Shown here: in pieces, positions 37,037 through 55,323 of the stretch
Position numbering within the stretch: the stretch's first letter is position 1
How the letters are laid out: the number at the start of each line of letters is the position of its first letter
NCBI GenBank assembly: GCA_000002435.2
Contig: CM018791.1
Reading direction: 5' to 3' (one strand)
Source of the DNA: Giardia intestinalis
Lineage: Eukaryota
DNA: 64,000 bases
Notes under the pieces: model-generated
Told to the model about the DNA's origin: nothing
Database searches by the model: none
Seen by the model: only the letters and a program-made list of their open reading frames with translations
Position numbers and translations under genes: made by a program

Positions 37037-39529
37037 CTATACAGTGTCTATATTCTCGAGCTTAATCAGCAACTGCTTGTGAATCATGTGGCTTCTTTTC
37101 AAAGCGCGGAGATACTCTAGTTGATCAGCTTTAGCTGTGACACCCTTCTCTGCCAGTACAGTACAGAGCTTGGCAAACAGGTCCCTGGTGCGCTGCTTGA
37201 CTGCAGTGGCTATGTAGCCATCCGTATCTGAGTAAGCGGCGCTCACACTCATTAGAGTGCACAAGATATGACACTCAGATAGCTGTCTGATAATCTGATC
37301 TATTTCAGAAGAAAGGGTGAGTTGCGCAGACATCCTGCTGTACTCGAAGAATGCGTTAAGTGTCTGCTTTAGCAAGTGGATTATTCTATTGATGTATTCG
37401 TGCAAAATGGGGTCCGATGTCTCTAGGCCAACACCTAGTTGGAGAGACAGGATAGTCTCAAAGAGACAACCCATAGCGTAGGCCTCTGGCTGTGCAATCA
37501 TGTCGATAAAAGATTGTGCATGATTTGTTTTCTTTCTAATACCATGACGGGAGTGGATTTGGTTGTACTTAAGCTTTAAGAGAACCTGGAAATCACCGTA
37601 AATAGCCTCCAGCTGGGCTTCAATCAACTCCAGAATGTAGGCTTTGATGGAGAGCATGCCCTCTCTGACAGCCACTCCGTGGCTAAGAAAGCGTTGCTCT
37701 AGGGCTTCTATAGCGTTGCTCAATAGAACCAGTGTTGGTATGTGCTGTTGTAGTAGAGGACACATTTCTATAGCGGAACGTATAAAGACCTCTATTGGGG
37801 TGAGTGTATGTAAAAGAATGGCGTGCTCAAACTCCTGGATAAATGCCTTTTCTGCCCCCGTGGATAGACTATCAAAAAGGGCGCTTTTCAGCTCTTTCCA
37901 TTGCTGAAACACAGTGAGAAGTAGCTGCAGAAATACAAACTCTAGGGGGACTTGCCGATGGACACGTTTCTTGGATCCTGATGAGGCAAATAGAGCCATG
38001 TCGCTAGATTGGGTGCCATCTATGTTTGTAGTCTTTATGAGCTTGGATAGATTGATGGTATTCCAGTGTCTGAGCTTCTCCACAATCAGACTCCTGTCTA
38101 TAAAGAATCTGTATCCGTAAAATACAGGTCCAAGCAACGCTGGAGCCAGGTTGAACTTGGCTAGCTTTCTATCCATGGCATACAGATACTCCCCAAACCT
38201 GTCATAATATCTCGTTGCCGCCATGGTAAGTAATACTTTATCACAGTCTGGATTGAAATTGAGGGTGCGTGCCTTCCATGTCCAGCACTCTTCCGATTGA
38301 ATTTCTAATCGTTTCATGATCAAGTAAGTTAGGTGCGAGGACTCTGAGTATGGTCGCTGCTCCCCATCCATGCACAGATTGCAGAAGGGCTCAAACACAG
38401 AGAATAGGGTGATAGGTGGGAGCTTCCATTGCTGCTCTCTCGGTGCACTGGACAGTATGCTCTGAAATCCTGACTTCAGTATGGACAAGTAGCCCTGCTT
38501 CTTTGCCTTCCGTTCCAGTGCGTGCAATAGTTCTGCAAGGCTCAAGGATAGATCGGAGGGCTGTGGTGTGAGGGTTAATTGAAGTCTAGTGGAGTAAATC
38601 TGATTTTCGTTACATTCTAAATCATTAGTAGTGAAGCTGGAATCTGGGTAAAGTTGGCGGGCCACTGAGTTCGCTCTACTTCTTTCCAACGATTGAGGCG
38701 AGCTAGCACGAGACTTCACAGCAGGTGTTTGCACGGTTGACTGCGCTCGACTAACCCGTGCGCTTTCTGTCAGAGTTTGAGAACATCGTGCAGACCTGGC
38801 TGCTCGTCTACTCATCGCTCGCCGAGCCTGTGATGAAGCCCTGTGTTTGGTAATACAGGTCTGACAGAACCGCTCTTCGAGCTCTTTAAACGAATAGAAT
38901 TCAATCCCAGTAAAATCACAATGGATTGATGGATTGTTTGAGATTGCTCCCATCTGATGCACGCTCTCCTCAGCGCTGCCTAGCAGAAAGGCAGAAATAA
39001 CCATCCCCAAAATCCACCGAAATGTCGAGCAGGTTTGGAATAGTATCAAGAACCATCTGCTCTGGACGCTGTGGCTTCTGATCCGATGCAAATACTCGGA
39101 TAAAGACTGCTGAGATTTAAACAGCGAGGTATGGCGCTCTAGAGAAGAACCATGCCGAGCTCTGTGATTGGTCTGAAAAATCCCCAGAGGAATCTGACAT
39201 GATTCCACAAAGGAGTGTAGAAAGTCGACAGCAACGGGCCAGAGGAACGACGTGTCATCCAAAATCTCGTCTATTTCCTTAGACAAAGTCGAGAAAAGTA
39301 TGTTTGCAAGCACGGGAGGCATGTACTCATTGTCTGCTTTCAAAGGAACAGTCAGATCGCACTTTTCGTTGAGTAGAAGATACGCATAGAATGACCTAGG
39401 TGATTGCGTCTGTGCATCGACAACAGTGTCGAGCAGTGAAAAGGAATCCAGGCTGTCTTTAATGGTAGGTTCGACTAGATTCAAGAGCTCTTCTGCTGCC
39501 TGACGAACAGACGTCAGCATTTTTTCCAT
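37037..39529 (-). CDS. hypothetical alpha-helical protein (about 830 aa)
   Basis: The track ORF 37037-39562 starts at TTG. The first ATG is at about 39529 (MEKMLTSV...). Long stop-free frame with helical composition. Its stop codon directly abuts the stop of the convergent DPP III gene. Confidence 0.55.
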   Translation of the reverse strand: MEKMLTSVRQAAEELLNLVEPTIKDSLDSFSLLDTVVDAQTQSPRSFYAYLLLNEKCDLTVPLKADNEYMPPVLANILFSTLSKEIDEILDDTSFLWPVAVDFLHSFVESCQIPLGIFQTNHRARHGSSLERHTSLFKSQQSLSEYLHRIRSHSVQSRWFLILFQTCSTFRWILGMVISAFLLGSAEESVHQMGAISNNPSIHCDFTGIEFYSFKELEERFCQTCITKHRASSQARRAMSRRAARSARCSQTLTESARVSRAQSTVQTPAVKSRASSPQSLERSRANSVARQLYPDSSFTTNDLECNENQIYSTRLQLTLTPQPSDLSLSLAELLHALERKAKKQGYLSILKSGFQSILSSAPREQQWKLPPITLFSVFEPFCNLCMDGEQRPYSESSHLTYLIMKRLEIQSEECWTWKARTLNFNPDCDKVLLTMAATRYYDRFGEYLYAMDRKLAKFNLAPALLGPVFYGYRFFIDRSLIVEKLRHWNTINLSKLIKTTNIDGTQSSDMALFASSGSKKRVHRQVPLEFVFLQLLLTVFQQWKELKSALFDSLSTGAEKAFIQEFEHAILLHTLTPIEVFIRSAIEMCPLLQQHIPTLVLLSNAIEALEQRFLSHGVAVREGMLSIKAYILELIEAQLEAIYGDFQVLLKLKYNQIHSRHGIRKKTNHAQSFIDMIAQPEAYAMGCLFETILSLQLGVGLETSDPILHEYINRIIHLLKQTLNAFFEYSRMSAQLTLSSEIDQIIRQLSECHILCTLMSVSAAYSDTDGYIATAVKQRTRDLFAKLCTVLAEKGVTAKADQLEYLRALKRSHMIHKQLLIKLENIDTV

Positions 39530-39569
39530 GCCCTCGTAACCAAGGGGTCCAATGGGTAGCAAAGGTCGA

Positions 39570-39576
39570 GTTTACT
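39570..39576 (-). promoter_or_regulatory. putative polyadenylation signal AGTAAAC on the minus strand, 3 nt after the TGA stop of the thioredoxin-like gene
   Basis: The minus strand reads TGATAAGTAAACTCG. This matches AGTRAAY. Confidence 0.5.
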
Positions 39577-39578
39577 TA

Positions 39579-40214
39579 TCACAACTTTCTAGAAGCCCCT
39601 GTAAATGTAGAGTCTCCTCCGTGCGATGCTCCCGCTTTGTACGAATCATTGAGAAGCTTTAAGATACTGTCGCATTGACTAGGATGGCCAGAATATTTCA
39701 AAGCTCCCGATCCATCATAAATAAATGCATGAGGGATGCCGTTAATGTTCTCCCGGGATGCTAGTGCCTTGACGTCGCCCGACGAATCTACTGCAAGGTT
39801 GTAGTCCTTTGTAGCTGGAATCTTCGAGGCGAAACTTCTAACTGTCGCCTCGTCTTCATCAGAAACGCTGAGAATGTATACATTCTTATACTTCTTAGCC
39901 ATTTTGGAGAGATGAGGAATCATCGCGCGGCAAGGGGGGCACCACGTGGCAAACTTTTCGATCATAATGGGTTGGCCATATTGGTACTCAGATACTTTGT
40001 TGATGTACGTCAATTTTTGCAGGTTGACAGGAAGCCGAGCAGAGGCCATCGGATCAAAGGTTCCTATTTTTTTCTTGGACGGACTCGACTGTGCTCCTGT
40101 AGCCCCATCATGATTGCTTCCCAAAGCTGGCTTCTTGCCCATCACAAAAGCATAGATCACCGCGTAGATCCTGAGGACAAAGGCCTTGATGGCATCGACG
40201 AGCCAATGCCCCAT
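39579..40214 (-). CDS. tryparedoxin/nucleoredoxin-like thioredoxin-fold protein with WCPPCR active site and an N-terminal membrane anchor (211 aa)
   Basis: ATG at 40214. Hydrophobic N-terminus LVDAIKAFVLRIYAVIYAFVM. Redox motif KFATWCPPCRAMIPHL (tryparedoxin, nucleoredoxin and TlpA-like proteins use WC(P/x)PC(R/K)..P). The C-terminal GIPHAFIYDGSG resembles the TlpA-family GVP..F(L/I)ID..G. Confidence 0.7.
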   Translation of the reverse strand: MGHWLVDAIKAFVLRIYAVIYAFVMGKKPALGSNHDGATGAQSSPSKKKIGTFDPMASARLPVNLQKLTYINKVSEYQYGQPIMIEKFATWCPPCRAMIPHLSKMAKKYKNVYILSVSDEDEATVRSFASKIPATKDYNLAVDSSGDVKALASRENINGIPHAFIYDGSGALKYSGHPSQCDSILKLLNDSYKAGASHGGDSTFTGASRKL

Positions 40215-40304
40215 CTCAAGCTTTTATTGATTTTTTGAAAGGAATGGCAAGCGGATAAAGCAGGGCCTTTGGTGCATGTACTTTTGGGATGCCCAATAAG
40301 GTTC

Positions 40305-41015
40305 TCAGCGGTACATATTGGAGAGACTAGCAAATTGTATTTCCATCAGCTCCTCCTCTGCTACTTCCGTCTCCAGTGCCACAAGCAACGCACTCTTTCT
40401 TTCACTAACAGATGTGACTATGTTTTTGCGCACGTGCTGAAGAAGGTTGGCTTCGAAGTCCGTTCGTGGGCCTCGCGTGGCCATTTCTAACTGCTCTTTC
40501 AATGACTCCAGCATTCTAACTACTGTTTCATGTGTCTCCTTGGCAATTATATACCTCAAGCGAAATGCATCGCAGAGAGCAAAAAGGTCCTTAGCCACCA
40601 TACACCTCTGTACCCCATCCTCAAGAGACAGGCCTCTTGCAGTGATAAAGGTATCCCCTGACTGCTTCTCCTGCTCCTTGCGATGCATTATTGACAAGGA
40701 GGAAGAGGCGTTCTCTACGTTATTTGTTGGCTCAGGTTCGACTGCCTTGACGTGCGTGGAGAGGGACTGCGAAAGCGCATTCAACACACCCACACTCAGC
40801 CGAGTTGCCTGAGATGGGACTATTGCGCAGATCTTTGTACACGGAGTAAGGGAGTATGGAGTAAGGGGTCCGTTGCGAGATATCCGCTTGAGACGGTATA
40901 TCGTGCAGGCCGAAGACGGAATACCGGTCTCCCTTTCTGTCCTCTTCTTAAGCTCAGCCACTGTCAACGGCCTGTTGGCCTCGATGGAGCTTATTCCAAG
41001 GAACGTCTCAATCAT
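40305..41015 (-). CDS. hypothetical protein (236 aa), possible N-terminal helix-turn-helix
   Basis: ATG at 41015. Its ATG overlaps the upstream lipase gene's stop (the minus strand reads ATGATTGA). The N-terminal RPLTVAELKKRTERETGIPSSACTIYRLKR resembles psq/CENP-B-type HTH motifs. This is a weak call. Confidence 0.45.
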   Translation of the reverse strand: MIETFLGISSIEANRPLTVAELKKRTERETGIPSSACTIYRLKRISRNGPLTPYSLTPCTKICAIVPSQATRLSVGVLNALSQSLSTHVKAVEPEPTNNVENASSSLSIMHRKEQEKQSGDTFITARGLSLEDGVQRCMVAKDLFALCDAFRLRYIIAKETHETVVRMLESLKEQLEMATRGPRTDFEANLLQHVRKNIVTSVSERKSALLVALETEVAEEELMEIQFASLSNMYR

Positions 41016-43170
41016 TTATTTGGATCGTCGATAGGTTAGAATGGTCAGACGTGGGAAACAGGCCATAATATACCAATAGTAGGTATTCGAAGTACATAAG
41101 GTGCTGAGCCCACATATCCTTTGTGATGATCAGCTCTTCAATAGACGCAGAGTTTCCTTCATAAAGCTGTGCAAAGCGTTGCCCTCTTAGATCGAATACC
41201 CCCTTGCCTGCACATAAGTTATTAATATCAGCAAGCGATCGCGGGCACGGGGGCGAAGCTTGTGCATGCAGAAGCTCGAGAATCAAGAGAGATCCCGGGG
41301 TATGGAGGGTGAGGGTCTTCTCAAACGACGGTCTGGATAGCTTGTTAATATACAGCTGCAGAAGATCCTCGTCAGACAACTCATGCAAGAGCGATTGAGA
41401 GGATGCACTTACGCCTCCACTGTATTCTGGCAGTCTCGCGGAGTCATTAGTATACTCTAACATAGTCATTAGTCTATCAACCAATCCTCTTTTTTGTATT
41501 TCATCACGCAAGGATGCACGCCACAGTGTGGTCTGGATGGCGCTCAAAGATAAGCGGCAAACCACATCGCACTCAAGAGCGACTTGATATGAATACATCC
41601 CCAGCTCCCTAGACAGCGGCAAAGACACTGTTGGTGGGGCTCCAAAGCCATAAACCCGTACCCTATCCCCGAGTAGTGGCCGGAAGAAGTAGCCCAATAA
41701 GGCGGCTACTCCGGCGCCCAAGCTGTGGCCGGTAAAAATAAAGGTATATGGCCAGTCTGCTGTATCGTTCAAGATGCTCTCATTTCGGAAGTAAGTAGTG
41801 AAGCTGTGCCGGTCCTTTACGATTGAAAACAGCTGTTCAATATATGGTTTGATTGTATAGAAGAGGCTGCTGCTTGCTAGGTAGATTCCCTGATGTGCAT
41901 ACATCCCATTCTCCATGCTCTTGTCGGTATAATCTACTATGTGATCCTTGAATAGCTTGTTACGGAGCCTTTTGGGTATTTTTCGATTGCAGGTGGATAC
42001 AGACGTGGTTTTGTTCGTCGAGATTGCAGATTGACTACTAATTGATGGATACAAACAACTGCATATCAGGTCATCATAGGCGGGTGGTGGTCGCGTCACT
42101 CGAGTATATCCTACTGTAAGATCGACCTTTATGTCACCAAGAGACATTGTCCCCCGGACCGCAACAACCACTTCGCGCCTGTATGGATCTACATATAGGC
42201 AATGATGAGTTTCGAAGGCCTGGTTTGTCACGTAAAACAAAAGTATCTGGTCAGCTGTTACTCCCATTTCTGTTATAAAAGCATATAGATCGTTGTCGCA
42301 CTCCGCCAAGTACTCACTGACTTGGTGATGTGTTGCTGTATTTATGTAATCCATACTGAAGGCTCTATGAAGCCTTTCGGTACTCAGAGGCCAATCCTGG
42401 GGGCAGCCGTGGATGTATTCTGACTGAGTACTGGATTGACAGTGGGTCTTCTCGCGTGCATTGCTACTGCCATGCCAATCATAACGTATACCACATGCAC
42501 GCCCACTGTTGCCTATAAACTCATGATCCTGGATATTGGGGTCTTCTACTGCATGAATTATCTGCTCACTGTCGGCTTGGGCATGCTCTGTATGCTTCTT
42601 GTTGTTTGTAGCCGTCAGTCGTTTCCTTTCTATATCTAATATTCGTTGGTGATCATCTATATTGAGCTCCATTGTAAGTCTTCGAGTGCAGCTTGGAGTA
42701 GCTGGAAGAAAATCCTCCAGGCTTTCTTCCTTCAGCTCACTTTCCGCCCAGTAGTCTACAGACGGATATATGGTTCTGCCACACTTACTTGTCATCCTCT
42801 CTATTGTTGGTGCGGCGCAAACTGCAGATTGTAGGAGACGCCAACCAATCAATCTCAGTCTAGTGCGAGTATTATATGCTGGTATGTAATTCCTACGGTA
42901 CCCTAGATTATACTTTGTACCTACGCACCCGTACATGGCGAACGACACTCTACAGAAATGCAGGAGGGTCGATAGAAAGTAAATATCATCGATGCGTGAA
43001 TGTGGAGAGTTGCTCAAAGGCTTACCTCTTAATTGCTCCATATCTCTGGCCAGCTTACTTAAAGCCAGACACGTGCTCAGGTGTATCTCCAGATTTCCGT
43101 GAACCGCGTTATTAATGAATGAGGCTAGCATATGATAAACGTCGGTGAAGGATATTCCAAGATGGAGCAT
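41008..43170 (-). CDS. class 3 (fungal-type) lipase / alpha-beta hydrolase domain protein with long N-terminal extension (720 aa)
   Basis: ATG at 43170. Lipase_3 signatures VVVAVRGTMSLGD and the nucleophile elbow FTGHSLGAGVAALLG (GHSLG). Confidence 0.65.
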   Translation of the reverse strand: MLHLGISFTDVYHMLASFINNAVHGNLEIHLSTCLALSKLARDMEQLRGKPLSNSPHSRIDDIYFLSTLLHFCRVSFAMYGCVGTKYNLGYRRNYIPAYNTRTRLRLIGWRLLQSAVCAAPTIERMTSKCGRTIYPSVDYWAESELKEESLEDFLPATPSCTRRLTMELNIDDHQRILDIERKRLTATNNKKHTEHAQADSEQIIHAVEDPNIQDHEFIGNSGRACGIRYDWHGSSNAREKTHCQSSTQSEYIHGCPQDWPLSTERLHRAFSMDYINTATHHQVSEYLAECDNDLYAFITEMGVTADQILLFYVTNQAFETHHCLYVDPYRREVVVAVRGTMSLGDIKVDLTVGYTRVTRPPPAYDDLICSCLYPSISSQSAISTNKTTSVSTCNRKIPKRLRNKLFKDHIVDYTDKSMENGMYAHQGIYLASSSLFYTIKPYIEQLFSIVKDRHSFTTYFRNESILNDTADWPYTFIFTGHSLGAGVAALLGYFFRPLLGDRVRVYGFGAPPTVSLPLSRELGMYSYQVALECDVVCRLSLSAIQTTLWRASLRDEIQKRGLVDRLMTMLEYTNDSARLPEYSGGVSASSQSLLHELSDEDLLQLYINKLSRPSFEKTLTLHTPGSLLILELLHAQASPPCPRSLADINNLCAGKGVFDLRGQRFAQLYEGNSASIEELIITKDMWAQHLMYFEYLLLVYYGLFPTSDHSNLSTIQIND

Positions 43171-43518: not shown

Positions 43519-46500
43519 ATGATTTCGCTTTCCCTTAGGCTTGGGTTGATCGTAGCTGCTTGTGTCACTCCTGCGACGAGAAGCCCACAGTCTGGAGATT
43601 GTTTAATAGGCAAGTGTACAGTCTTAGACGGGCAATATTGCGCCGAGTGTGCAATCCCCGGAGAGGTGCCCATCAACGGGGTATGCATCCCCCTCACTGA
43701 TCCCAGGGCAGTGGCATCTGGCTGCGGAGGCAGTGCAGAGGCTCCGCTGAGTACATCCGCCAGGAGGTGCGAATTTTGCCGCGGCGGAAGCTACTTTCTC
43801 CACGAGGGAGGGTGCTATAACGTGCTCTATAGCCCCGGAAACCGCATATGCAGAACTGCTACATCAGGATACTGCACGTTGTGTGTAGATGGATTCTTTC
43901 TAGACACAACATCCAGCATTCACCAGTGCAAGCCTTGCCACTCCACATGTGCCACGTGCACAAGCGGCACTGCTCAGTCCTGCCTCAGTTGCCGGTCAGA
44001 TCGGTTTCTCAAGACCAACGAATGTAAGGAGTGCTCTGCTGCAGATGGTGGAGTAACAGCTTGTGCACAGTGCTCTCAAAACTCCGACGAGATCACTTGC
44101 ACTCTGTGTAAAGAAAAGTACTTCGTTAAAGAGGGTAAGTGCACCGCTTGTGCTGCCAACTGTGCCACATGCACAGGCGAAAGACCAGAGGATTGTAGTG
44201 TATGCGTGAGCAAGTACTCGTACGACCTTACTGCCAAAAGCTGTACGCAGACATGTGATGAGCACGATAGCCAGGCAACCAAATGCAAAACAAGCATGTG
44301 CACCGCGCTGAATAACAGATACTGCTCTCAGTGCGCTAGCAGTAGCGACCTTCTTATTGATGGGAAATGCGTCTCTGCAGATGACAAGAAGATCTGCACC
44401 CCATTCGATCCCCCCAACGGCACCTGTAGTACCTGTGCCAAGGGGCATTTGCTCTTTCAGGGAGGCTGCTATAGCGTAGCAGAACCTCTGGGGCAGGAGG
44501 TGTGTGCAGAGACCTCCGAGGTCCAGGAGCGTACGGTCTGTGTCCGATGTGCGCAGTCGGGCTTCGTGCCTGTCTCAGGGGTCTGTTTGAGGTACGACGC
44601 GCAAGAGGTGGCAGCAGTGGGCTGTGTGACGTCCCGGGGCTCTGCGGTCACACCCACAGACACGACATGTGCAAGTTGTGGAGCGAAAGCTTTCCTCTAC
44701 AAAGGTGGCTGCTACTCAAACGAGACGTCGCCCGGGAACGTCATATGCGACGAGCTGGACGGCACAGGTGGCTGCAAAGTGTGCAGTAACAAGTACTACC
44801 GCAGTGGCAGCACGTGCGCACCATGCCACCAGTCCTGTGAAACGTGCAGTAGCGGTGCTGCCGACAGCTGCCTGTCCTGCAAAAAGGATGTCTACTTTGA
44901 GGTTTTCAGCGGGGGGCGCGGCTATTGCAAGCCCTGCAACGATCCGGTGGCCACCATCACGATCGTAGGGGTCGCAAATTGCGAAAGGTGCAGCCCCAAG
45001 CCCAGCGGGACCATGCCTATCTGCACAAAGTGCACCACCGGGCATGTCCTCAAGGGCAACAGCTGTGTGCAGGTTTGTCATGAAGGGGCTGAGGGGGCGG
45101 GACAGTGCAAAACGGGACACTGCAATACCATTTCCAACACTTATTGTTCAGAGTGCGCCACATCTACAGAATGTCCTGTTGACGGCATATGCACAGCAAC
45201 CCTAGATGGGCACAGTGCACAAGACGGCGCCTGCACATCCTGCGCATCGGGGTACTTTCTATACAACGGGGGATGCTACCGAAAGGGTGTCATGCCTGGC
45301 ATGCTTATCTGCAAAGATGAAGACGACAGCACCAGCACCTGTTCCAAGTGCGAAGATGGATACATGTCATCGGGCAACGGATGCAAGGTCTGCGAGGTTA
45401 GCAACTGCCGGGCCTGCTCCGGAGATGCCGCCTCCTGCACCAGCTGCAACTCGGGATACTTCCTCAAGGACAACATAAAGGGGTCGAAGGTCTGCGAAAA
45501 GGTCTGCGAGGAGGGCATCGGCCCAGGGAAGTGTATCTACGGAGGATGCACGGTTCGAGACAACACCTTTTGCAGCAGATGCAGCGAGGCAGACGAAGTC
45601 CCCATAGATGGAGTTTGCTCGTTGCCAGAAAAACGGGCCCGCATATGTCTGAGTGCCTCTTCGGGAGCATGCCTTCGCTGCGCCGCAACCCACCTGCTGT
45701 ACTACGGCGGGTGCTATAAGATTACCCAGCCAGTGATCGAGATCTGCAAACAAGATAGTCAGATAGTAGAAAAGGACACTGCCTATTGCAAAGCATGTAG
45801 TGATGCGGGCGAGTACCCTGTCGATGGGTCATGCACAGCAGAGCTTGACGGAAATACGTGCACAAGCAGTAAGTGCACTGCATGCGGGTCCGGCTACTTT
45901 ATGCACAGGGGAATATGCATGCGGCAGGAATCACACTCAGATATCTGTGCCAGGGTCGGGGCTGGGGTCTGTGAGGAGTGTGGCAAATCGTACTTCAAGA
46001 ACCCGGTGGCTAGCACGGCGATAGACTCATGCATTGCGTGCAGCGATACAGCTGGAAGCAACGGATATACTGGAATAGATCACTGCGATACATGCCTGCC
46101 TCCTAAAGCAGCAGGACCGGCTACCTGTACAGACTGCGCAGATAGGTACATCTTGAACGAGCAGAATCGATGCGAAGAATCCTGTCCAGAAGTAGAGGAG
46201 AGCAGCAAGGCGACAGGAAAGTGTTTGAAGGGCTACTGCAACGTGCTCAACGGGAAGTATTGTTCCAGGTGTTCGCTAGAGTCAGATTATCTCGTGGATG
46301 GAAGGTGTACCTCCACCAATAGTAATGTTTGCACACCGCACACACAACAAAATGGTATGTGTGCGTCGTGTGCGATGACCCACATCCTTTACATGGGCGG
46401 GTGCTACAATCCAGCTGCGCCTCCCGGGAGTAAAGCGTGCGCTAGGCATAACCTGATAGGCAACACGCTATACTGCTTCCAGTGCGGAGTCGTGACAGAC

Positions 46501-49500
46501 CTTCTGGTCGATGGACACTGCCTTGCGCCCGGCAGTACAGAAGCTGCGGTGTGCACTCTGCACCGCATCCCCACTGGCACGTGCTACTATTGCAGCAGCG
46601 ACTACTTCCTGATGCTTGGGAGCTGCGTCTCGGCAGAAAGGGCTCCTGGAAACACGGTTTGCAAAGACCTTGGAGTGCATGACGGCATTTGCAGCACCTG
46701 CAAGGATGGATACTACGCGCCCCCCGACCGCTCAAGTGTCAGCGACTCGTGTGTTCCGTGCACAGAGAACAGCGACACGCTGAAGGGCATACCCCACTGC
46801 AAGAGCTGCAAGGTTTCCAACGGACTCCTGGTCTGTGTTGCCTGCGAGCAGTTCTACAGACCAATGAACGGGGGAACGGAGTGCGTGCAAACGTGCATTG
46901 AGGCAGAGGCAGACCCCAAGGAGCACAGGTGCAGAAAGGACAAGTGTGATGTCCTGGGCACGTTCTACTGCTCCCAGTGCGCTGCTGATGCCGAGGGCCC
47001 AGTCAACGGCGTGTGTGCTTCAGTGGCCGCAGGCGTGTGCATACAATATAAACAAGCTAATGGCACCTGCAAATACTGCACCCACGGATACATCAAGTAC
47101 AAGGGTGGCTGCTATGAAGCGGGGTCGTTCGAGGCGGGGGACATCTGCGACGCCCAGGATGTCGTGACCTCGGGTGCAGGGTCGTTTTGTGCAAAGTGTA
47201 AGCAGAAGGATGAGGTGCCCGTTGATGGGGAATGCAAGGTCTCGGATGACTGCACCGTCAAGGGAGATGGCATCTGCAGGTCGTGCAAACAGGGTGTTAA
47301 GTCATTCCAGATAACCAAGGATGGAAGTCCTGCAACGGTTGCATGCTTTACTAAGTGTCCGGATGGGATGTATGAGTCTGCTGAGTTCTGTCAGCTGTGC
47401 GATAAGAGCTGCAAGACGTGTCAAGATAGTGCAGCAAAATGCACGGGATGCGCAGACGGCTTCTATCTTGCGGCCGGAAAGTGTGTTGCTTGCAGCGTGC
47501 TCCACTGCTTGACGTGCAATGCGGCAAATACCTGCGCCTCTTGCCAGGATGGGTATTATGCCAGTGGGAACTCGTGTGTTGCATGCACACCCGGGTGTAA
47601 GAAGTGCGATAGTACTGGGTGTAAGGTCTGCAAGGATAGATTTGCACTGAGGAATAACATATGTATTGAGGAATGCCCCGTTGGATTGCTTTCCACGTCC
47701 TGTGCTGCAGGATACTGCAATGTCAACGGCACGCTCGCATGCAGCCGCTGTGCGCTATTAAACAGCGTTATCATCGACGGAAAGTGCAAAGCGAATGACG
47801 ACGCTTGCATCCGTACAACCCCATCCAGCGGGACGTGTGCGGCTTGCAAGGACACACACCTCCTCTACTATGGGGGCTGCTATGCTAAAGGCGCAGCAGC
47901 TGGGACTGCCATATGTGACAGCCAGCACCAGGCTACGCTGGGCCCGTACACGATCTGCAAGCAATGCAAGCGAGACGGGGAAGTCCCGATCGACGGCTCG
48001 TGCGTTGCATTGGCTAACACTAGGGCAATCAGATCGCAATGTGTCGCTGCCACACCAAGCCCCACGTCGTGCACACGCTGCGGGCCAAGGTTCTTCCTGC
48101 ACGCCGGGGGGTGCTACGAGATAGGACGCTCGCCTGGAACGGTGCTCTGTGCGGTGGCCGTCGACTCAGCAGTTGCAGGAGTGTGCACATCGTGTGCCTC
48201 CGGGTACTACAGCACAGGCCTACTCGATCCCACAAAGGAGTCCTGCATCCTATGTAATGATACAGGTGCAACAAATGGATACACGGGCATTGACGGCTGC
48301 ACAGAGTGCTATCCAAGCGAGACACCAAAGAGGGTCATCTGCACGCGATGCAAGGACAAGCACATTCCTAGCGAGGACGGCTCGCGGTGTATCCAAAGCT
48401 GCAACGACAGTAGATCAGAGTCTGGTAACTGTAAGGCTGGCAGCTGTACGGCGATGGGCTCGCTGTACTGTTCCAGGTGTGCGCTGGATGACGAGTGGCC
48501 GATCAACGGGGCTTGCACGGGGCGTGATACGGACTATGTTTGCGAGAAGGGGAAGGGCGTCTGCACAGGGTGCCTACGCGGATACATGCTCTACATGGGC
48601 GGGTGCTATGACCCTGCCGCGATTCCCGGGTCTGGCATTTGTAGGGAGCTTCTGACAGTCGGAGGGCGCACATATTGCAAGCAGTGCAATCTTGCAGGAG
48701 CGTTTCCAATAAATGGCCTGTGTACAAAGGATGTGCCAGATGGTGTCTCGTGCTCCAGCGGTTTATGCGTCATATGTCCCGAGAACTACTTCTTCCACGA
48801 GGGAGGCTGCTATGATATCACGACTACTCCTGGAAGTGGGATTTGCGAAGTCCTTGGAACAGGCCGCGATGCCGGGACCTGTCGGCGGTGCAGACCCGGC
48901 TACCGTCACAACAAGGAGACGCTGACGTGCATGTCCTGCGCCGTCTCCAACTGCGCCAGCTGCGAGATAGACGTGAAGTACTGCACAGAATGCATTCAGC
49001 CCTACACGCTGACAGGCGTCGGGGCCGGGGCATACTGCACGAAGCCCTGCAAAAGAGTGGGGCAGGACGCTTGCAGTTGGGGCTCCTGCACAATAATGGA
49101 CGGGTCTCTGTGCTCGCAGTGCGCGTCGAGTGATTACGTGCCGATCGACGGCGTCTGCACACTCTATCCTGGAGATGCTCGCTCACTGGCCGGTCCATGC
49201 GTAAAGGACGCCACGAAGGGCCGCTGCACCGCGTGCCGAGGGAGCTACTTCCTCTACCAGGGGGGCTGCTACTCCGCAGGCGAGTACCCCGGTACGGGCA
49301 TCTGCGATGAGCGCGATGCAACAGTCGTCGACGGCCAGGTCGTCTGCGGGAGCTGCCTGATCGACGGAGAGGTTCCTCTGGATGGCACGTGCGCAGAGCC
49401 GAAGGAGGGACTTATCTGCAGCAAGGGCGTGTGCTCGCACTGCGGAGACGGGATGTTCCTCTTCGAGGGCGCCTGCTACACAAAGGGAAGGGCGCCGGGG

Positions 49501-51138
49501 ACGAGCATTTGTGGAGACACCACGGAGTCGACGTCCGGGTGCGCTGCATGCGAGGCAGGCTTTTCCAAGACAAACAAGGGCTGCGTGCGCTGCTCCGATC
49601 CCAACTGCGGCGCGTGCGTAGACGACCCCAATACGTGCACCGCTTGCAGGGCCGGATACTATCTCCAGAGCACGTCCTGCATTGCGTGCCACCCGGCGTG
49701 CAAGACGTGCGATGGTATGGGGGCTGATAAATGCAAAGAGTGCGCCGAGGGATACTTTGGCACGTTCGCCACGCCTGGCCTGGGAGCCTGTCTTGCCTGC
49801 TCGGACACGTCTGGCAAGGACAGCTGGGTGGGAGTGAGTGGCTGCAGGCTCTGTGAGGCTCCGAAGGTAGCGGGCCCCGCACTGTGCAAGGACTGTCTCC
49901 CGGGCTACAAGGCGCTCTCGACCGGGACAGAGGTGACCTGCCATGCAGTCTGTCCAATGACGTACTACGAGGCCGCTGACAGCTGCATCCCGTGCGCGAT
50001 CGACAACTGTGCAACGTGTACAAGCACGAGATGCACCAGCTGCGTCCCAGAGCACATCTGGAACGGCGAAGAGTGCGTCCCCAAGATCTGCCCTCCGCAG
50101 TGCCTCTGTAGGGAGCAAAGTATAGCGTGCATAGGATGCAACGAGAACGCCGTTGAGGTCAGGCCGACCCACTCCAGCGCCAGCAGGTGCCTGCTGTGCA
50201 ACGACGCGGGGGCAGGCGGAGGATGGACAGGGGTCGACGGCTGCCAGAGGTGCCGCCTCGCTGATCGCGTGGGCCCGGTCGTCTGCCTGGCGTGCGAGAG
50301 TGGACGCAAGGCGCTGACTCTGGACGGGATGCTCCTGTGCCCCCGCGAATGTCCGACAGAGAGCTTCTGGACAAGCGGCAGGGAATGCATCCCCTGCGCG
50401 CTTGGTTGCCTCCGCTGCACATCTGCTACTACATGCAGCGCGTGCAGCCAGGGATACTACTCGACGCAAAGCTCTGTCTCTGCTCCGTCCGATTGCCGCC
50501 CGTGCGATGATGTGACAAGCCAGAACGGTTTCACGGGAATTCCACACTGTGCCGTGTGCGCGGCAGACCGGGCAAGGGCGGGGGTCACGTGCCACGCCTG
50601 CGCAGAGGGCTACGGGCTCTCCGGGGGCTCGTGCAGCCCGTGCACCGCGGCCGGTTGCGCCCGTTGCGACGGGGGTGTCTGCACCTCCTGCAAGAGGGGC
50701 TGGCACCTGGCGGGCGACCGCTGCCTGGCATGCCCCTCTCCGTGCGCCGCCTGCTCGTCGGCAGCCAGCTGTCTGGCCTGTGCCGACGGGTACTTCCAGG
50801 CGACGCTCCTCGGAGGCCCCCGAGACTGTGTGCCCTGCGACCAGACGGCACCCCAGGGGCTTCAGATGGCAGGCATCCACGGGTGCGGGCTCTGCCAGGC
50901 GCAGGCAGGGTCAGGCGCCGTCCTCTGCCTCCGTTGTGCGAACGGAAACCTCCCCCTGGAGAACTACTGCGGAGGCTCGTCGGTCAAGCGCCGCCTCGGC
51001 CCGGGCGCGATCACAGGGATCACCCTTGGCGTGGCCGTTCTTGTAGGCGGGGCCATTGGCCTTGCACTCGGCCTGACAGTGTGCAAGCGCGGGTGCGCAG
51101 GCAGTACAGGTGAAGGATTACGGCCACTTTACGCATAG
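43519..51138 (+). CDS. high-cysteine membrane protein (HCMP; VSP-like Cys-rich type I membrane protein lacking the CRGKA tail), 2539 aa
   Basis: ATG at 43519 in an A-rich context (aataaacaacagctATG). Signal peptide MISLSLRLGLIVAACVTPA. Many CXXC/CXC motifs. At least 9 degenerate modules of about 75-100 aa of the form C..G.C..L.G.YCS.CA....P.DG.C......C.....G.C..C..H.L...GGCY....PG..IC. A single C-terminal transmembrane segment (ITGITLGVAVLVGGAIGLALGLTV) with a short cytoplasmic tail CKRGCAGSTGEGLRPLYA. Confidence 0.85.
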   Translation: MISLSLRLGLIVAACVTPATRSPQSGDCLIGKCTVLDGQYCAECAIPGEVPINGVCIPLTDPRAVASGCGGSAEAPLSTSARRCEFCRGGSYFLHEGGCYNVLYSPGNRICRTATSGYCTLCVDGFFLDTTSSIHQCKPCHSTCATCTSGTAQSCLSCRSDRFLKTNECKECSAADGGVTACAQCSQNSDEITCTLCKEKYFVKEGKCTACAANCATCTGERPEDCSVCVSKYSYDLTAKSCTQTCDEHDSQATKCKTSMCTALNNRYCSQCASSSDLLIDGKCVSADDKKICTPFDPPNGTCSTCAKGHLLFQGGCYSVAEPLGQEVCAETSEVQERTVCVRCAQSGFVPVSGVCLRYDAQEVAAVGCVTSRGSAVTPTDTTCASCGAKAFLYKGGCYSNETSPGNVICDELDGTGGCKVCSNKYYRSGSTCAPCHQSCETCSSGAADSCLSCKKDVYFEVFSGGRGYCKPCNDPVATITIVGVANCERCSPKPSGTMPICTKCTTGHVLKGNSCVQVCHEGAEGAGQCKTGHCNTISNTYCSECATSTECPVDGICTATLDGHSAQDGACTSCASGYFLYNGGCYRKGVMPGMLICKDEDDSTSTCSKCEDGYMSSGNGCKVCEVSNCRACSGDAASCTSCNSGYFLKDNIKGSKVCEKVCEEGIGPGKCIYGGCTVRDNTFCSRCSEADEVPIDGVCSLPEKRARICLSASSGACLRCAATHLLYYGGCYKITQPVIEICKQDSQIVEKDTAYCKACSDAGEYPVDGSCTAELDGNTCTSSKCTACGSGYFMHRGICMRQESHSDICARVGAGVCEECGKSYFKNPVASTAIDSCIACSDTAGSNGYTGIDHCDTCLPPKAAGPATCTDCADRYILNEQNRCEESCPEVEESSKATGKCLKGYCNVLNGKYCSRCSLESDYLVDGRCTSTNSNVCTPHTQQNGMCASCAMTHILYMGGCYNPAAPPGSKACARHNLIGNTLYCFQCGVVTDLLVDGHCLAPGSTEAAVCTLHRIPTGTCYYCSSDYFLMLGSCVSAERAPGNTVCKDLGVHDGICSTCKDGYYAPPDRSSVSDSCVPCTENSDTLKGIPHCKSCKVSNGLLVCVACEQFYRPMNGGTECVQTCIEAEADPKEHRCRKDKCDVLGTFYCSQCAADAEGPVNGVCASVAAGVCIQYKQANGTCKYCTHGYIKYKGGCYEAGSFEAGDICDAQDVVTSGAGSFCAKCKQKDEVPVDGECKVSDDCTVKGDGICRSCKQGVKSFQITKDGSPATVACFTKCPDGMYESAEFCQLCDKSCKTCQDSAAKCTGCADGFYLAAGKCVACSVLHCLTCNAANTCASCQDGYYASGNSCVACTPGCKKCDSTGCKVCKDRFALRNNICIEECPVGLLSTSCAAGYCNVNGTLACSRCALLNSVIIDGKCKANDDACIRTTPSSGTCAACKDTHLLYYGGCYAKGAAAGTAICDSQHQATLGPYTICKQCKRDGEVPIDGSCVALANTRAIRSQCVAATPSPTSCTRCGPRFFLHAGGCYEIGRSPGTVLCAVAVDSAVAGVCTSCASGYYSTGLLDPTKESCILCNDTGATNGYTGIDGCTECYPSETPKRVICTRCKDKHIPSEDGSRCIQSCNDSRSESGNCKAGSCTAMGSLYCSRCALDDEWPINGACTGRDTDYVCEKGKGVCTGCLRGYMLYMGGCYDPAAIPGSGICRELLTVGGRTYCKQCNLAGAFPINGLCTKDVPDGVSCSSGLCVICPENYFFHEGGCYDITTTPGSGICEVLGTGRDAGTCRRCRPGYRHNKETLTCMSCAVSNCASCEIDVKYCTECIQPYTLTGVGAGAYCTKPCKRVGQDACSWGSCTIMDGSLCSQCASSDYVPIDGVCTLYPGDARSLAGPCVKDATKGRCTACRGSYFLYQGGCYSAGEYPGTGICDERDATVVDGQVVCGSCLIDGEVPLDGTCAEPKEGLICSKGVCSHCGDGMFLFEGACYTKGRAPGTSICGDTTESTSGCAACEAGFSKTNKGCVRCSDPNCGACVDDPNTCTACRAGYYLQSTSCIACHPACKTCDGMGADKCKECAEGYFGTFATPGLGACLACSDTSGKDSWVGVSGCRLCEAPKVAGPALCKDCLPGYKALSTGTEVTCHAVCPMTYYEAADSCIPCAIDNCATCTSTRCTSCVPEHIWNGEECVPKICPPQCLCREQSIACIGCNENAVEVRPTHSSASRCLLCNDAGAGGGWTGVDGCQRCRLADRVGPVVCLACESGRKALTLDGMLLCPRECPTESFWTSGRECIPCALGCLRCTSATTCSACSQGYYSTQSSVSAPSDCRPCDDVTSQNGFTGIPHCAVCAADRARAGVTCHACAEGYGLSGGSCSPCTAAGCARCDGGVCTSCKRGWHLAGDRCLACPSPCAACSSAASCLACADGYFQATLLGGPRDCVPCDQTAPQGLQMAGIHGCGLCQAQAGSGAVLCLRCANGNLPLENYCGGSSVKRRLGPGAITGITLGVAVLVGGAIGLALGLTVCKRGCAGSTGEGLRPLYA

Positions 51139-51143
51139 TAAAT
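51137..51143 (+). promoter_or_regulatory. putative polyadenylation signal AGTAAAT overlapping the TAG stop of the HCMP gene
   Basis: The sequence is gcaTAGTAAATgg. The motif begins at the A of the stop codon. Confidence 0.5.
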
Positions 51144-51240: not shown

Positions 51241-54200
51241 ATGTACACACAGAGGTCATTGCACAAAAGGTATGTTGTACTTGTGAATGCCATACTCTCT
51301 TCACCACAGCCTTGGAGCATACGGCGGCGAGCTACAGCTCTTTTATGGGAATATCGCCTGGGGTTTAAACGTACAAGAAACATGCTTCTTCAGTTCATGC
51401 ATCATCTGGGCTCGGTTCAGGATAACACTGACACACTTTTGAATATTTTTGTCGCTACCAAGTTTATTGGACATCCAGCCCTTTCACAACTATCTGATCT
51501 GGTAAAGAGGTTGTTTCTGAAGTCTAATAGAGAGGATTGGTCTGCTATAGAATCGGCCGTGCTTACTCTTCTATTACTATCACTCTATCAAGGACAGGAT
51601 TCAAAATCATGCAATTCTCCTACATCGATCTGTACCCTTCAACCTCATAGAGACACTCCTTCTTTACTTACATCCATTTTAGGAAATTATCAAAGCCCCA
51701 ATCAGCAACTGCTCAAGAAGCACTTCTCAGCTATTAGCAAAAGCATGTCGGTTCTGAATCCTTGCACACAGAATGACTCTCTTTGTATTTCAAGGAAAGC
51801 TTCTGGTTCGACTGGAGAATTACTATGCTTTAGCTTTCAGCCGGCAGCTTTCACTGGGAATACTACTTCACGGCGTTCTACCGCAGTCTCAATTCTTCAA
51901 AGTCGTGGGGAAGGTCTTCGAGAAGCTGTGTTAAGCTCACCACATAACCCTAAGGGAGAAGTGCTCCTTTTAGGTCAGATAACGTGCTTCGATGATCTTC
52001 TGACGCTTATAAAGGGTTTGAATACACACCAGCAGTTTGCAATCTATAATAACCTGTCTCTATCTTTAGAGACACGAAAACTTGCAAAACTTTGGGTTCA
52101 GCCAAACCTCTATCTCATGTCTTGGGAGGCCCTTGTTGATCGCTTTGTTGACCAGTACTTTGGAATAGAGATTGCCCACGAGGTTGCCAATAGGCTTACT
52201 GATAAAGTTCTTTTTGACCTTTATCTTGCAAATCAGGTTGTCTGCAGTCAGAGTGCGATCGAGGGAGACACAAGAGCTAGTTCCGCCTTCCTTATCCAAC
52301 TGCAAGAGTTGGAAACAGTGCATTCTGTAGTACATGGGTACAAGAACCATCTTAGACACTGCATTTTGCATGAAAGGTTTTCTCATTCTGTCGAGCTGTT
52401 AGATGTATGTGTCATGCGTGGATCTGTCTTTGCAAGACAGCAATCTAGGAAGATGTTGCCAACTTTCTACACCCTGGTCTCAGAGGGGATTCTGAAGAAG
52501 ATGCAGCAACTAATCATTACAGAAACATACAGAATGTACGCGGGTAGTTGTAGTCAGCGATCACAAGGTGGGTCCCCAGAGATAGAATTGGGCATTGGAG
52601 GAGGGATTCCCATTATTAAAAGGTGTCTCTTTTATGAATTTGAGAACATTGGGCCCCTATCCTGCAACTCTGCCTTGGCAGCTTTGTTCCAAAAAAGATG
52701 GGAACTTCCTGAGCCAATGGCATTAATTGAAGAGCTGCTCCGACCTATCCCACGCATCTGGCTGCCTTTCTCACTTAAAGAATATGCAGGGACTATCATC
52801 GAACTTTTCAATTTAGGATCTCTTTTGTCGGCAACCAGAGAACATTATCCGCTCCTGCTTAGGACTCTTTTTTTGTACACTAGTACCGTTACTGGAGCCA
52901 TGACTCACCACACAACATCATCGAGCACGGATTGTGTAGAAACTCTTCTATTTTCATCTGACTATGAGTTCTACAAACCTAAGGATACGCATACCTCGAA
53001 ACTTAGTGCTAAAAGCCAAGGATTGGCCCATCAGCTCATTCAGGAGAGCATCGGGTCATATATTTCACATACAGCAAGCTTTCTTGAGCAGGAGCAAATC
53101 CGTAGAAGCGTTGCTAATCAGCTCGAAGAACAAACCGGAAAGCTTAGCAAGAGCGTGACCTTGTCCGCAATAAGTAGAGACAATCAGGCTAATATCCAAG
53201 ACGAGGCACTTCTTCCCGGTGCCGTTGCATCCAAAAGGGAGATTGCAGCAGTTCTAAACGATCTTAAGTCCTACTTCGTAACAGAAATGAGCAAGCTTGG
53301 ACTGGATGTCAAAAAGGATGAAGTTGTAGACGGTTTGAATCGCCAATTTAAACTATTATTGGCCAAACAAGCCCCTAGCTATGCAGACCTTTTTGAAGAA
53401 ATGGAGACAAAGCAAAATCTAGAAGAATTGAAAAGCGAGGAGCTGATCCCACGAGCTTCATTGCAGGACTCTGGTGCGGTAGAGGAAAATATATCTAATC
53501 TCAAGGCACCAGAATTCTTTGTCGATAAGAAAATACCAGGAAACGCCGCAGCACCATTCGATAAAAGTTTAGATACACAGAAGCTCCTCGGTGAAGAAGA
53601 CCTGCTAGCTCGTAAGAAGATGGAGGAGAGAATTGAAAAGGCAAAGCAGCGAGATGAAGTGCATAAGGCTGCTGTAGAAAGAGATAAGACTCTGCCTCTT
53701 CGAAAACGGAAGTTTAAGACAGCAAAGGAGATCATAGAGAATACAGAGTATGAAGGTGTTGGTGTTTTCTTCGACTGGGACGAGTATCTTCATGATAAGT
53801 TCCCAACACTAGTAGATTCTCTGCATAAATCTCATGCCCTTGCAAGCACTGACTCTCAAAACGAATTTCTTATTTCGCCAATCCATCGGCAAGATGATAT
53901 AGACAAGGGCTGGTGTCATTTTTCTAGAGAAAAGCATGATACAGAGCTTTTTCTATCCTACTCTGACGTTAATTACAGACAGCTGATCTCTCAATACATG
54001 GGACCAATCCAGCTTCTCCACCAATTAACAAACAAGATAGTGTGCAACTACCTTCTGTATGAGTCAAACCTCTTTTCGTGCATAGATACCGTGGGTGAGG
54101 TATGCTTCCTTTTAGATAGCAATTTGACCAATAGACTACTGTCTACGTTCTTCAAACACGGAAGTAGTACATGGATTTTTGACGGATCGTTTCAGGAGCA

Positions 54201-55323
54201 GCGGGTGCTCTCTGTGCTGTCTCGTCATGACCTACGCGGTGTAGCAGAGTTAACCATACTTACTGGGTCACTGAGCTCCGCTGATGTTCCTGGTCACAGC
54301 AGAATTTCAGCAGAAGACGATCTGCCCCAGCAAGGACGGGAGGCGATTGACTCTATTATTTCCATGAACAGGACACTAAACTCAGATTTATCTACGACGC
54401 TTGAAGGTCAATTATCAGATCTGTATACATCTGTCTGTCTTCTATGCAATCCTCACTCTAACTCGTCTCTCCCCATTCATAGTATTATATCAGCCCGAGA
54501 TATTGCCAACGTCCTGCAGTTATACAGTCCAAAGCGTCCTGGATCCGCATCTCGCAAAGACAATGGTGTACTTGATCATCTTCTGATCAAAGAAAACGAG
54601 CGACGCATATCTCAATCTTACAGCTCCAACACTAACTTTACTATGCTTCTAGATTTTTCTACTAGCAACGCATTGTTCCACCAATTGTACTATGCGCCTC
54701 TTGAGCCTCTCATCCTTGTGGTTTTTAAACACATCCTTACATTGTCGCAAAGCCTATATTCATTGCATGGGCTTTGGTTTCTCCTGGTGGTTAGCGATAA
54801 AGATCACAAAAGATACTCCGCATTGGAAAGACGCACACGTAAGTTACTAGTTATTCGTCACAGTGCATGTTGCTTCTTACAAGTCTTCCTCCGCTTTTTG
54901 CTTGGAGATGTACATTTGACTCTGGAAAACGCAAAGCAGTGCATTTACAAAACTCTGGAGACAGGGACAAACGTACTCAGGTCTGTAGATCAGTGGCACA
55001 CTCTGATTGCCATTACGTTGGCGCGCCTTTTTCTGACTGGTCCCCATCGAACCATTTTTGCAGCCATAAAGGAGATGCAGTGCCATGTCCTGCGGTTTTG
55101 CAACGAAGTGTGTGCTTACATAGAGTTTAGCAAGGCAGCGCCCGGGGTAGTATTCAATTATGAGGAGAAACTGACCGAAGTCTTTTGGCGAGCATCAAAT
55201 GCTGGCCTGGACCTGCAGCATGCAATAGATGAGATTGTAGCATGCTTGGTCCATTACGTAGAAAAGCTTGGGGTGACACGCTATGAGGAGGTCCTGGCTC
55301 AGTTTTCTTTACTAAGTAAATAG
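51241..55323 (+). CDS. large hypothetical protein (1360 aa)
   Basis: ATG at 51241. Long uninterrupted ORF, no recognised catalytic motif. A charged, coiled-coil-like stretch lies around aa 700-780. Confidence 0.6.
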   Translation: MYTQRSLHKRYVVLVNAILSSPQPWSIRRRATALLWEYRLGFKRTRNMLLQFMHHLGSVQDNTDTLLNIFVATKFIGHPALSQLSDLVKRLFLKSNREDWSAIESAVLTLLLLSLYQGQDSKSCNSPTSICTLQPHRDTPSLLTSILGNYQSPNQQLLKKHFSAISKSMSVLNPCTQNDSLCISRKASGSTGELLCFSFQPAAFTGNTTSRRSTAVSILQSRGEGLREAVLSSPHNPKGEVLLLGQITCFDDLLTLIKGLNTHQQFAIYNNLSLSLETRKLAKLWVQPNLYLMSWEALVDRFVDQYFGIEIAHEVANRLTDKVLFDLYLANQVVCSQSAIEGDTRASSAFLIQLQELETVHSVVHGYKNHLRHCILHERFSHSVELLDVCVMRGSVFARQQSRKMLPTFYTLVSEGILKKMQQLIITETYRMYAGSCSQRSQGGSPEIELGIGGGIPIIKRCLFYEFENIGPLSCNSALAALFQKRWELPEPMALIEELLRPIPRIWLPFSLKEYAGTIIELFNLGSLLSATREHYPLLLRTLFLYTSTVTGAMTHHTTSSSTDCVETLLFSSDYEFYKPKDTHTSKLSAKSQGLAHQLIQESIGSYISHTASFLEQEQIRRSVANQLEEQTGKLSKSVTLSAISRDNQANIQDEALLPGAVASKREIAAVLNDLKSYFVTEMSKLGLDVKKDEVVDGLNRQFKLLLAKQAPSYADLFEEMETKQNLEELKSEELIPRASLQDSGAVEENISNLKAPEFFVDKKIPGNAAAPFDKSLDTQKLLGEEDLLARKKMEERIEKAKQRDEVHKAAVERDKTLPLRKRKFKTAKEIIENTEYEGVGVFFDWDEYLHDKFPTLVDSLHKSHALASTDSQNEFLISPIHRQDDIDKGWCHFSREKHDTELFLSYSDVNYRQLISQYMGPIQLLHQLTNKIVCNYLLYESNLFSCIDTVGEVCFLLDSNLTNRLLSTFFKHGSSTWIFDGSFQEQRVLSVLSRHDLRGVAELTILTGSLSSADVPGHSRISAEDDLPQQGREAIDSIISMNRTLNSDLSTTLEGQLSDLYTSVCLLCNPHSNSSLPIHSIISARDIANVLQLYSPKRPGSASRKDNGVLDHLLIKENERRISQSYSSNTNFTMLLDFSTSNALFHQLYYAPLEPLILVVFKHILTLSQSLYSLHGLWFLLVVSDKDHKRYSALERRTRKLLVIRHSACCFLQVFLRFLLGDVHLTLENAKQCIYKTLETGTNVLRSVDQWHTLIAITLARLFLTGPHRTIFAAIKEMQCHVLRFCNEVCAYIEFSKAAPGVVFNYEEKLTEVFWRASNAGLDLQHAIDEIVACLVHYVEKLGVTRYEEVLAQFSLLSK
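55315..55321 (+). promoter_or_regulatory. putative polyadenylation signal AGTAAAT embedded in the last codons and stop (agt aaa tag) of the 51241-55323 gene
   Basis: The sequence is ctaAGTAAATAG, which matches AGTRAAY. The next gene's ATG follows 16 bp after the stop. Confidence 0.45.

Follow-up and report, generated by a model that had tools for sequence, protein, structure and literature searches.

The best described relatives of the gene treated here are the cysteine-rich surface proteins of Giardia. Variant-specific surface proteins (VSPs; Pfam PF03302) have a CxxC-rich type-I ectodomain in which the GGCY module occurs, in most of them, once or twice; the cysteine of their CRGKA tail is palmitoylated (PMC1762436), and they are reported to bind zinc and iron and to resist proteases (10.1101/2022.03.07.483299). 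High-cysteine membrane proteins (HCMPs; renamed CRMPs in 2022) were delimited by Davids et al. 2006 (PLoS One 1:e44; PMC1762436) by a length above 400 amino acids (aa), at least 10% Cys, at least 20 CxxC/CxC motifs, type-I topology and the absence of a CRGKA tail, with a 'TMK-like' subgroup set by identity with open reading frame (ORF) 114180, 113416 or 113319; the CRMP definition names a signal peptide, a transmembrane (TM) domain and a non-CRGKA tail (10.1101/2022.03.07.483299). Of the gene families of Giardia, that of the HCMPs responds most to host contact; responses to contact, iron, redox state and histone acetylation are described for it (PMC7461913). The tagged members 7715, 91707 and 115066 were located at the plasma membrane (PMC7461913). 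The present analysis concerns a window of 64,000 nucleotides (nt) of Giardia intestinalis DNA (GenBank assembly GCA_000002435.2, contig CM018791.1) and, within it, the gene GL50803_114180 (114180) at 43519..51138 on the plus strand. We are highly confident in one overall explanation, namely that 114180 is a known, low-expressed TMK-like HCMP whose modular hairpin ectodomain would form a surface rod braced by disulfides or metal.

One ORF of 2539 codons, free of internal stops and of ambiguous bases, fills the interval 43519..51138 (+) from ATG to TAG (ORF list and translation). An earlier account made by a model from the letters alone (the sequence-only reading) had described a single 7.6-kb ORF of 2539 aa coding for a giant non-VSP high-cysteine membrane protein of Giardia, and this description was borne out by an exact match to an HCMP and by homology to the Pfam VSP family. 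The translated protein is identical to XP_001710289.1 / KAE8303221.1 / UniProt A8B3R3 (exact-sequence look-up); this match and the tables of Davids et al. identify the interval, 2539 aa plus TAG, as the complete coding sequence of 114180, by sequence the intact gene of assemblage A, isolate WB, and one of three paralogous 'TMK-like' HCMPs.

ORF 114180 is listed in Tables 1 and 3 of PMC1762436 with 263.8 kDa, 13% Cys, 110 CxxC, 1 CxC and 12 GGCY, in the MEME group 'TMK-like', with the TM helix printed as AITGITLGVAVLVGGAIGLALGL and the tail as TVCKRGCAGSTGEGLRPLYA. The values computed from the ORF equal those of Davids et al. in mass, Cys content, motif counts, TM helix and tail (calculated mass 263.7 kDa; 330 Cys in 2539 aa, 13.0%; 110 CxxC in an overlapping count, 1 CxC); Gly makes up 11.1%, and CC does not occur. 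GL50803_00114180 is cited again as a CRMP with 12 GGCY motifs in the 2022 preprint (10.1101/2022.03.07.483299). The gene, its family and its GGCY/CxxC counts are therefore already known, having been published in 2006 and re-catalogued in 2022. The accessible text of PMC1762436 gives motif counts and MEME groups, and no explicit map of 15 modules in nine groups was found in it; what is added here is confirmation and a cleaner anatomy, with 15 modules and one half module in nine groups, two hairpins to a module, and a GGCY-free stalk.

The protein is a type-I membrane protein with a signal-like N-terminal segment, an ectodomain of about 2475 aa, one TM helix and a 20-aa tail. A probable signal peptide (aa 1 to about 22, MISLSLRLGLIVAACVTPATRS; 43519..43584, +) is indicated by Kyte-Doolittle windows of 19 aa above 1.6 at aa 1-2 and by the CRMP classification; the single TM helix AITGITLGVAVLVGGAIGLALGL (aa 2497-2519; 51007..51075, +) has the highest hydropathy of the protein (Kyte-Doolittle up to 2.28) and is the one printed for ORF 114180; the cytoplasmic tail TVCKRGCAGSTGEGLRPLYA (51076..51135, +) contains two Cys and neither CRGKA nor a kinase domain. 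Outside the N-terminus and aa 2493-2523 no 19-aa window is strongly hydrophobic; a marginal hydrophobic stretch at aa 1541-1542 lies inside a module. A signal peptide, one C-terminal TM helix and a short non-CRGKA tail had been read from the sequence; the hydropathy peaks and a CRGKA count of 0 agree. Set against the definition of Davids et al., the protein has 2539 aa with 13.0% Cys, 110 + 1 CxxC/CxC motifs, hydropathy peaks at aa 1-20 and 2497-2519 followed by a 20-aa tail, and no CRGKA, and it is placed in the TMK-like subgroup by the exact XP_001710289.1 match.

In a Pfam scan of 114180, VSP (PF03302) was the sole family matched (E = 2.6e-175, in 17 stretches), with no Pkinase and no enzymatic or signalling domain; homology to the Cys-rich families of Giardia, named beforehand as a check, is strong. 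Such a match could also indicate a true VSP engaged in antigenic variation: CxxC and GGCY motifs are common to both, the profile of the module described below also retrieves proteins ending in CRGKA, and ESU38537.1 and ESU39394.1 are named 'Variant-specific surface protein' in GenBank, a label that the A2-isolate orthologue carries. This identity is nevertheless very improbable. The defining CRGKA tail is absent; the TM helix (GVAVLVGGAIGLALGL) is unlike the conserved ...GFLCWWF... helix of VSPs, the VSP-type matches ending in FLCWWF[ILV]CRGKA; the protein is 3-4 times longer than typical VSPs (about four times their size) and has 12-15 modules against one or two; and both published classifications (PMC1762436, 10.1101/2022.03.07.483299) put it outside the VSPs. 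The only polyadenylation signal seen at the stop is of the conventional and not the extended type: AGTAAAT at 51137-51143 (+) overlaps the TAG at 51136-51138, as the sequence-only reading had pointed out, and the conventional signal is used by all HCMPs except 17328 (PMC1762436).

The HCMP ectodomain of 114180 is built from repeated modules. Exact GGCY occurs 12 times (aa 97, 315, 396, 584, 730, 960, 1196, 1452, 1530, 1694, 1762 and 1915), against a mean of 0.15 and a maximum of 3 in residue shuffles (n = 2000); the four example strings that had been picked out from the sequence are all present. For the module map, windows around all GGCY-like sites were aligned, a profile was built, and hidden Markov model (HMM) envelopes were read from it. 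The map shows 15 complete modules, 68-84 aa long, of which 12 are canonical (GGCY) and three degenerate (GICM, GSCV or GACY), together with one half module. They form nine groups, six of them pairs and three with a single full module, and CxxC linkers separate the groups. At least nine modules of 75-100 aa, each ending in GGCY...PG..IC, had been proposed: the modular repeat holds, while the number fits the groups, the true count and size being those just given. The pattern GGCY-x(3-12)-PG-x2-[IVLA]C matches eight times (10 times in the relaxed G-x2-[IVLA]C form).

Group 1 is a single module (aa 28-111; 43600..43851, +; HMM envelope 67 bits, leave-one-out 56 bits). Group 2 is a pair (aa 256-329 and 330-410; 44284..44748, +), group 3 a single module (aa 530-598; 45106..45312, +) and group 7 a pair (aa 1395-1466 and 1467-1544; 47701..48150, +), all three delimited by HMM envelopes, alignment and leave-one-out scores. 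Pairs with a degenerate second module are group 4 (aa 672-743 and 744-810, GICM for GGCY; 45532..45948, +), group 5 (aa 902-974 and 975-1048, GSCV; 46222..46662, +) and group 9 (aa 1852-1929 and 1930-1998, GACY; 49072..49512, +). Group 6 (46930..47316, +) consists of a full module (aa 1138-1210) and the half module (aa 1211-1266), which lacks the GGCY hairpin and matches HMM positions 6-54 with 21.5 bits (independent E-value 9.5e-9). Group 8 (aa 1638-1708 and 1709-1776; 48430..48846, +; HMM envelopes and alignment) is a pair and was taken for modelling.

The module consensus is CxxxxCxVxxxxYCSxCAxxxExPIDGxCx(8-20)CxxxxxxxGxCxxCxxxYFLYxGGCYxxxxxPGxxIC. Nine columns of the module alignment are invariant, six of them Cys, and identity to the reference module is 28-48%. 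Each module comprises two related hairpin units, CxxC-x(9-11)-[DN]G-x-C followed by CxxC-x(8)-GGCY, the first with the flavour P-[IV]-D/N-G-x-C and the second with [FL]-[LF]-x-x-GGCY...PG-x2-IC. When each module was left out in turn, it scored 45-77 bits against a profile made from the remaining 14. In 200 composition-preserving shuffles, with the 13% Cys kept, no domain scored above 5.3 bits, so the GGCY repeat is not an effect of composition. Periodicity was taken from fragment-against-fragment BLAST, which gave 597 off-diagonal high-scoring segment pairs (HSPs) with E down to 3e-33; whole-protein self-BLAST shows the diagonal only, its HSPs being culled. The self-alignment test attached to the sequence-only reading accordingly came out strongly positive. 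At the nucleotide level only motif-level matches of 19-47 nt at 60-90% identity were detected in the ORF: Tandem Repeats Finder gave 19-23 nt, and the direct-repeat scan gave matches of at most 47 nt at 60-88% identity. The internal copies are old; their age and divergence, and the lack of a nucleotide-level repeat, had been read correctly.

Three classes of linker can be told apart: those of 73-75 aa and those of 89-93 aa each have 10 Cys, and those of 119-144 aa have 16-22; the 89-93-aa class contains a G[YFW]TG[IV]xxCxxC or KGIPHCKSC element. The description of the ectodomain as a chain of GGCY modules applies across the nine groups and fails in the last 500 aa or so. There, linker/stalk dissection delimits a membrane-proximal stalk (aa 1999-2496; 49513..51006, +) with 73 Cys, 32 CxxC and G[YFW]TG[IV]xxCxxC as its recurring element; no GGCY module was found in it, the best profile match within aa 1999-2496 having an independent E-value of 0.59.

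An AlphaFold2 model of the group-8 pair (aa 1638-1776), for which the input alignment was only the seven internal pairs, consists solely of successive short beta-hairpins (pLDDT 86.8, pTM 0.77). It gives a confident picture of a module pair in a family that has no solved structure; the foldable module of about 70 aa offers a practical start for structural and binding studies. Foldseek against the PDB returned no significant match for this model (best E = 0.07); the top neighbours, all weak, are furin-like Cys-rich repeats (R-spondin Fu1-Fu2 and the CR domains of the EGFR/HER and insulin/IGF1 receptors). By sequence, the whole protein has no match in the PDB, and PDB matches of the module profile (MYND zinc fingers, C-type lectins) lie at E >= 0.076, are of chance level and were rejected as noise.

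Searched against 1.84 billion representatives, the module profile retrieved 504 proteins at E <= 1e-3. The best 150 of these include 149 new representatives, of which 114 carry GGCY and 31 end in CRGKA; the GGCY-bearing matches look, from their sequences, like VSPs and HCMPs of Giardia type. The other 35 lack GGCY, and those with a name are metagenomic 'proprotein convertase subtilisin/kexin type 5'. Three metagenomic proteins of uncultured eukaryotes (P0041, P0043 and P0071; 1000-3470 aa, some auto-named PCSK5) consist of two-hairpin CxxC repeats, 14-44 in tandem, which can be aligned with the module of Giardia and have no GGCY; in P0041, profile positions 9-69 align with tandem 66-aa two-hairpin repeats ending in G-x-C, not GGCY. 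Judged by such alignments, the module seems to be a widespread furin-like or PC5/6-like repeat of protists in a GGCY/PG-x2-IC flavour, which among the matches listed is present only in those of Giardia type; the 'PC6B repeat' remark of Davids et al. (PMC1762436) agrees with the PC5/6-like reading. Two-hairpin CxxC...GxC units are common to 114180 and the furin-like or PC5/6-type repeats of R-spondin Fu1-Fu2, the EGFR and insulin-receptor CR domains and the metagenomic 'PCSK5-like' protist proteins. In Giardia muris the sole match is 24% identical over 16% of the query, and no one-to-one orthologue was recognised there.

The solved folds nearest to the module are ligand-binding ones, namely the furin-like repeats in R-spondin, in EGFR and in the insulin receptor. 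The 'TMK-like' label itself derives from the transmembrane kinases of Entamoeba histolytica, whose ectodomain is likewise CxxC-rich and whose ectodomain HMM is reported to match ORF 114180 at E = 4.7e-5 (PMC1762436). Both observations could speak for a receptor-like sensor or adhesin, its TMK-like ectodomain binding a ligand of the host or the environment and partner proteins relaying the signal; we regard such a role as improbable. The fold similarity is weak, HCMPs have no known ligand, host-cell contact brings no reported change in expression (PMC7461913), and the cytoplasmic part, unlike that of the Entamoeba kinases, is a 20-aa tail without a kinase or other domain. With such a tail 114180 cannot signal as a kinase, which excludes a kinase receptor; a receptor or adhesin that has no kinase is conceivable but unsupported.

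WB has three TMK-like genes: 114180, GL50803_113416 (2516 aa, 95.3% identical; 96.5% in the body) and GL50803_113319 (2529 aa, 75%). Counterparts are present in isolate DH and in the assemblage E isolate P15, whose homologue is 84.5% identical to 114180. The paralogues and the P15 and DH homologues have the architecture of 114180, with the cysteines conserved; the two paralogues have signal peptides and tails of their own and are placed on different contigs of the WB assembly from that of 114180. WB, DH and P15 agree in having collinear lengths (the A2-isolate orthologue also has 2539 aa), by which a frameshift or assembly join in the ORF, the first test set by the sequence-only reading, was ruled out. 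An alignment of five homologues has 327 of its 330 Cys columns invariant, the remaining three being lost only through a single 21-aa deletion in 113416, against 78% of non-Cys columns. This contrast is strong evidence for a structurally constrained, expressed protein and not a relic. A decaying or silent copy, a functional pseudogene whose ORF was kept by chance or recent duplication, would fit the very low RNA levels and the near-identical paralogues; it is scarcely credible all the same, the 7.6-kb ORF being intact in WB, DH and P15, the Cys conserved while 22% of other residues differ, and chance retention of 330 Cys not credible when identity with the P15 homologue is 84.5%.

The WB and DH copies of the 114180-type and 113416-type loci have bodies that are all 96.3-97.0% identical, orthologous or not. 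Of the informative body sites in these copies, five agree with orthology, 14 with a grouping by strain and 12 with a crosswise one; all 31 such sites in the signal peptide and tail follow orthology. This mosaic pattern suggests ectopic interchromosomal gene conversion or a chimeric draft assembly in DH. That ongoing ectopic conversion keeps the 114180 and 113416 bodies, on different chromosomes, mosaic while their ends stay locus-specific is a tentative proposal that we consider rather doubtful; if true, it would let surface proteins diversify by a route other than that of the VSPs, while a scaffold of 330 cysteines stays frozen. A further record, XP_001709275.1 (191 aa, annotated 'High cysteine membrane protein'), repeats about 190 aa from the C-terminal end of the TMK-like genes, with a TM helix and tail of 113319 type. 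Its accession is near that of the full-length 113319 gene (XP_001709278.1), and going by this nearness it looks like a C-terminal gene fragment.

Published expression values place 114180 among the least expressed HCMPs (PMC7461913, supplementary Table 8, also for the following values): 1.24 fragments per kilobase per million (FPKM) in trophozoites, 0.91, 2.13 and 5.89 at 1.5, 7 and 22 h of encystation, and 1.93 in cysts, with no fold change listed on Caco-2 contact and 0.56-fold under oxidative stress. Levels as low as these imply that the contribution of 114180 in culture is minor or condition-specific. The course from 1.2 in trophozoites through 5.9 at 22 h of encystation to 1.9 in cysts (PMC7461913) would suit an encystation or cyst-stage protein, not a component of the trophozoite coat, after the manner of the related HCNCp (GL50803_40376; P0044), the HCMP that Davids et al. 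2006 localised experimentally (PMC1762436). HCNCp (1609 aa) is a type-I protein with 13.9% Cys, multiple CxxC and 5 GGCY, is matched by the module profile at E = 3.6e-55, and is among the best non-paralogous matches of 114180 (26-30% identity over long stretches). The identity, however, does not exceed that range, encystation strongly induces HCNCp (168 FPKM at 22 h; PMC7461913) but not 114180, and the small 22-h bump is common to all three TMK-like paralogues; a dedicated cyst-stage protein is accordingly unlikely, though the small late-encystation rise leaves room for a cyst-stage role.

For 114180 as a low-expressed HCMP, the most likely role would be that of a disulfide-braced, protease-resistant surface rod, by extension from what is described for the family. 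Its cysteines may form disulfides within modules, or metal sites as reported for VSPs; such bonds or sites would brace a long, rigid, protease-resistant rod on the surface of the trophozoite or the encysting cell; the rod would add to the Cys-rich coat and possibly contribute to ligand or host contact; and the tail cysteines are candidate palmitoylation sites, by analogy with the CRGKA of VSPs. Release is described for some HCMPs, and a list of proteins released in co-culture includes paralogue 113319 (PMC5739509); paralogue 113416 is named, in a figure legend of PMC7775365, among surface antigens quantified by mass spectrometry. Several points weigh against this picture. Localisation, disulfide pattern, metal binding and function of 114180 are all extrapolated from the family; near-floor expression and the lack of a listed host-contact change weaken a role in host interaction; the assignment of reads and peptides in published data is ambiguous, the paralogues being 95-97% identical, with paralogue-unique peptides confined to aa 1-34, the tail and scattered substitutions in the body; and the signal peptide was judged by hydropathy and published classification.

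The gene is surrounded by ordinary genes (34910-43170 and 51241-59616) and lies outside any VSP/HCMP cluster; its neighbours encode an M49 peptidase, a thioredoxin/AhpC-like protein, a class-3 lipase, an ankyrin protein and a BRO1-domain protein. Both flanking genes, the class-3 lipase gene (41008-43170, -) and the gene of ankyrin protein GL50803_16750 (51241-55323, +), encode exact Giardia WB proteins. Elsewhere in the window, a 1419-aa VSP is encoded at 6264-10523 (+) in a block of 63% GC with antisense ORFs of 946-1019 aa (Pfam VSP 2.9e-70, GF_recep_IV 1.2e-30, Furin-like_2 9e-16); it is presumably the repeat-containing VSP with which 114180 had been contrasted in the sequence-only reading.

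Within 114180 there is a step in GC content at third codon positions (GC3), from 0.54-0.70 in the first 1750 codons to 0.74-0.79 at codons ~1751-2500 (48770-51020), with window GC up to 0.60 in the high-GC3 zone; GC-biased conversion among the paralogues is one possibility for its origin. A 565-aa antisense ORF at 49183..50880 (-; from the ORF list, Ala/Arg-rich, in the codon-complementary frame) is most likely spurious, as had been supposed for antisense ORFs of up to this length. Its translation contains 125 Ala and 69 Arg in 565 aa. Sense TTA, CTA and TCA codons, which are antisense stops in the complementary frame, number 32 in the gene and 0 at codons 1890-2464, where gene-wide codon usage predicts 6.9; block-wise codon shuffles give a mean of 342 codons for the stop-free antisense run, against 575 observed, and 0.2% of them reach 565. 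As a real gene the antisense ORF was rejected on its complementary frame, its composition and its exact overlap with the zone of GC3 0.74-0.79; since the run coincides exactly with the compositional shift and its translation is Ala/Arg-rich, we regard it as a by-product of that shift.

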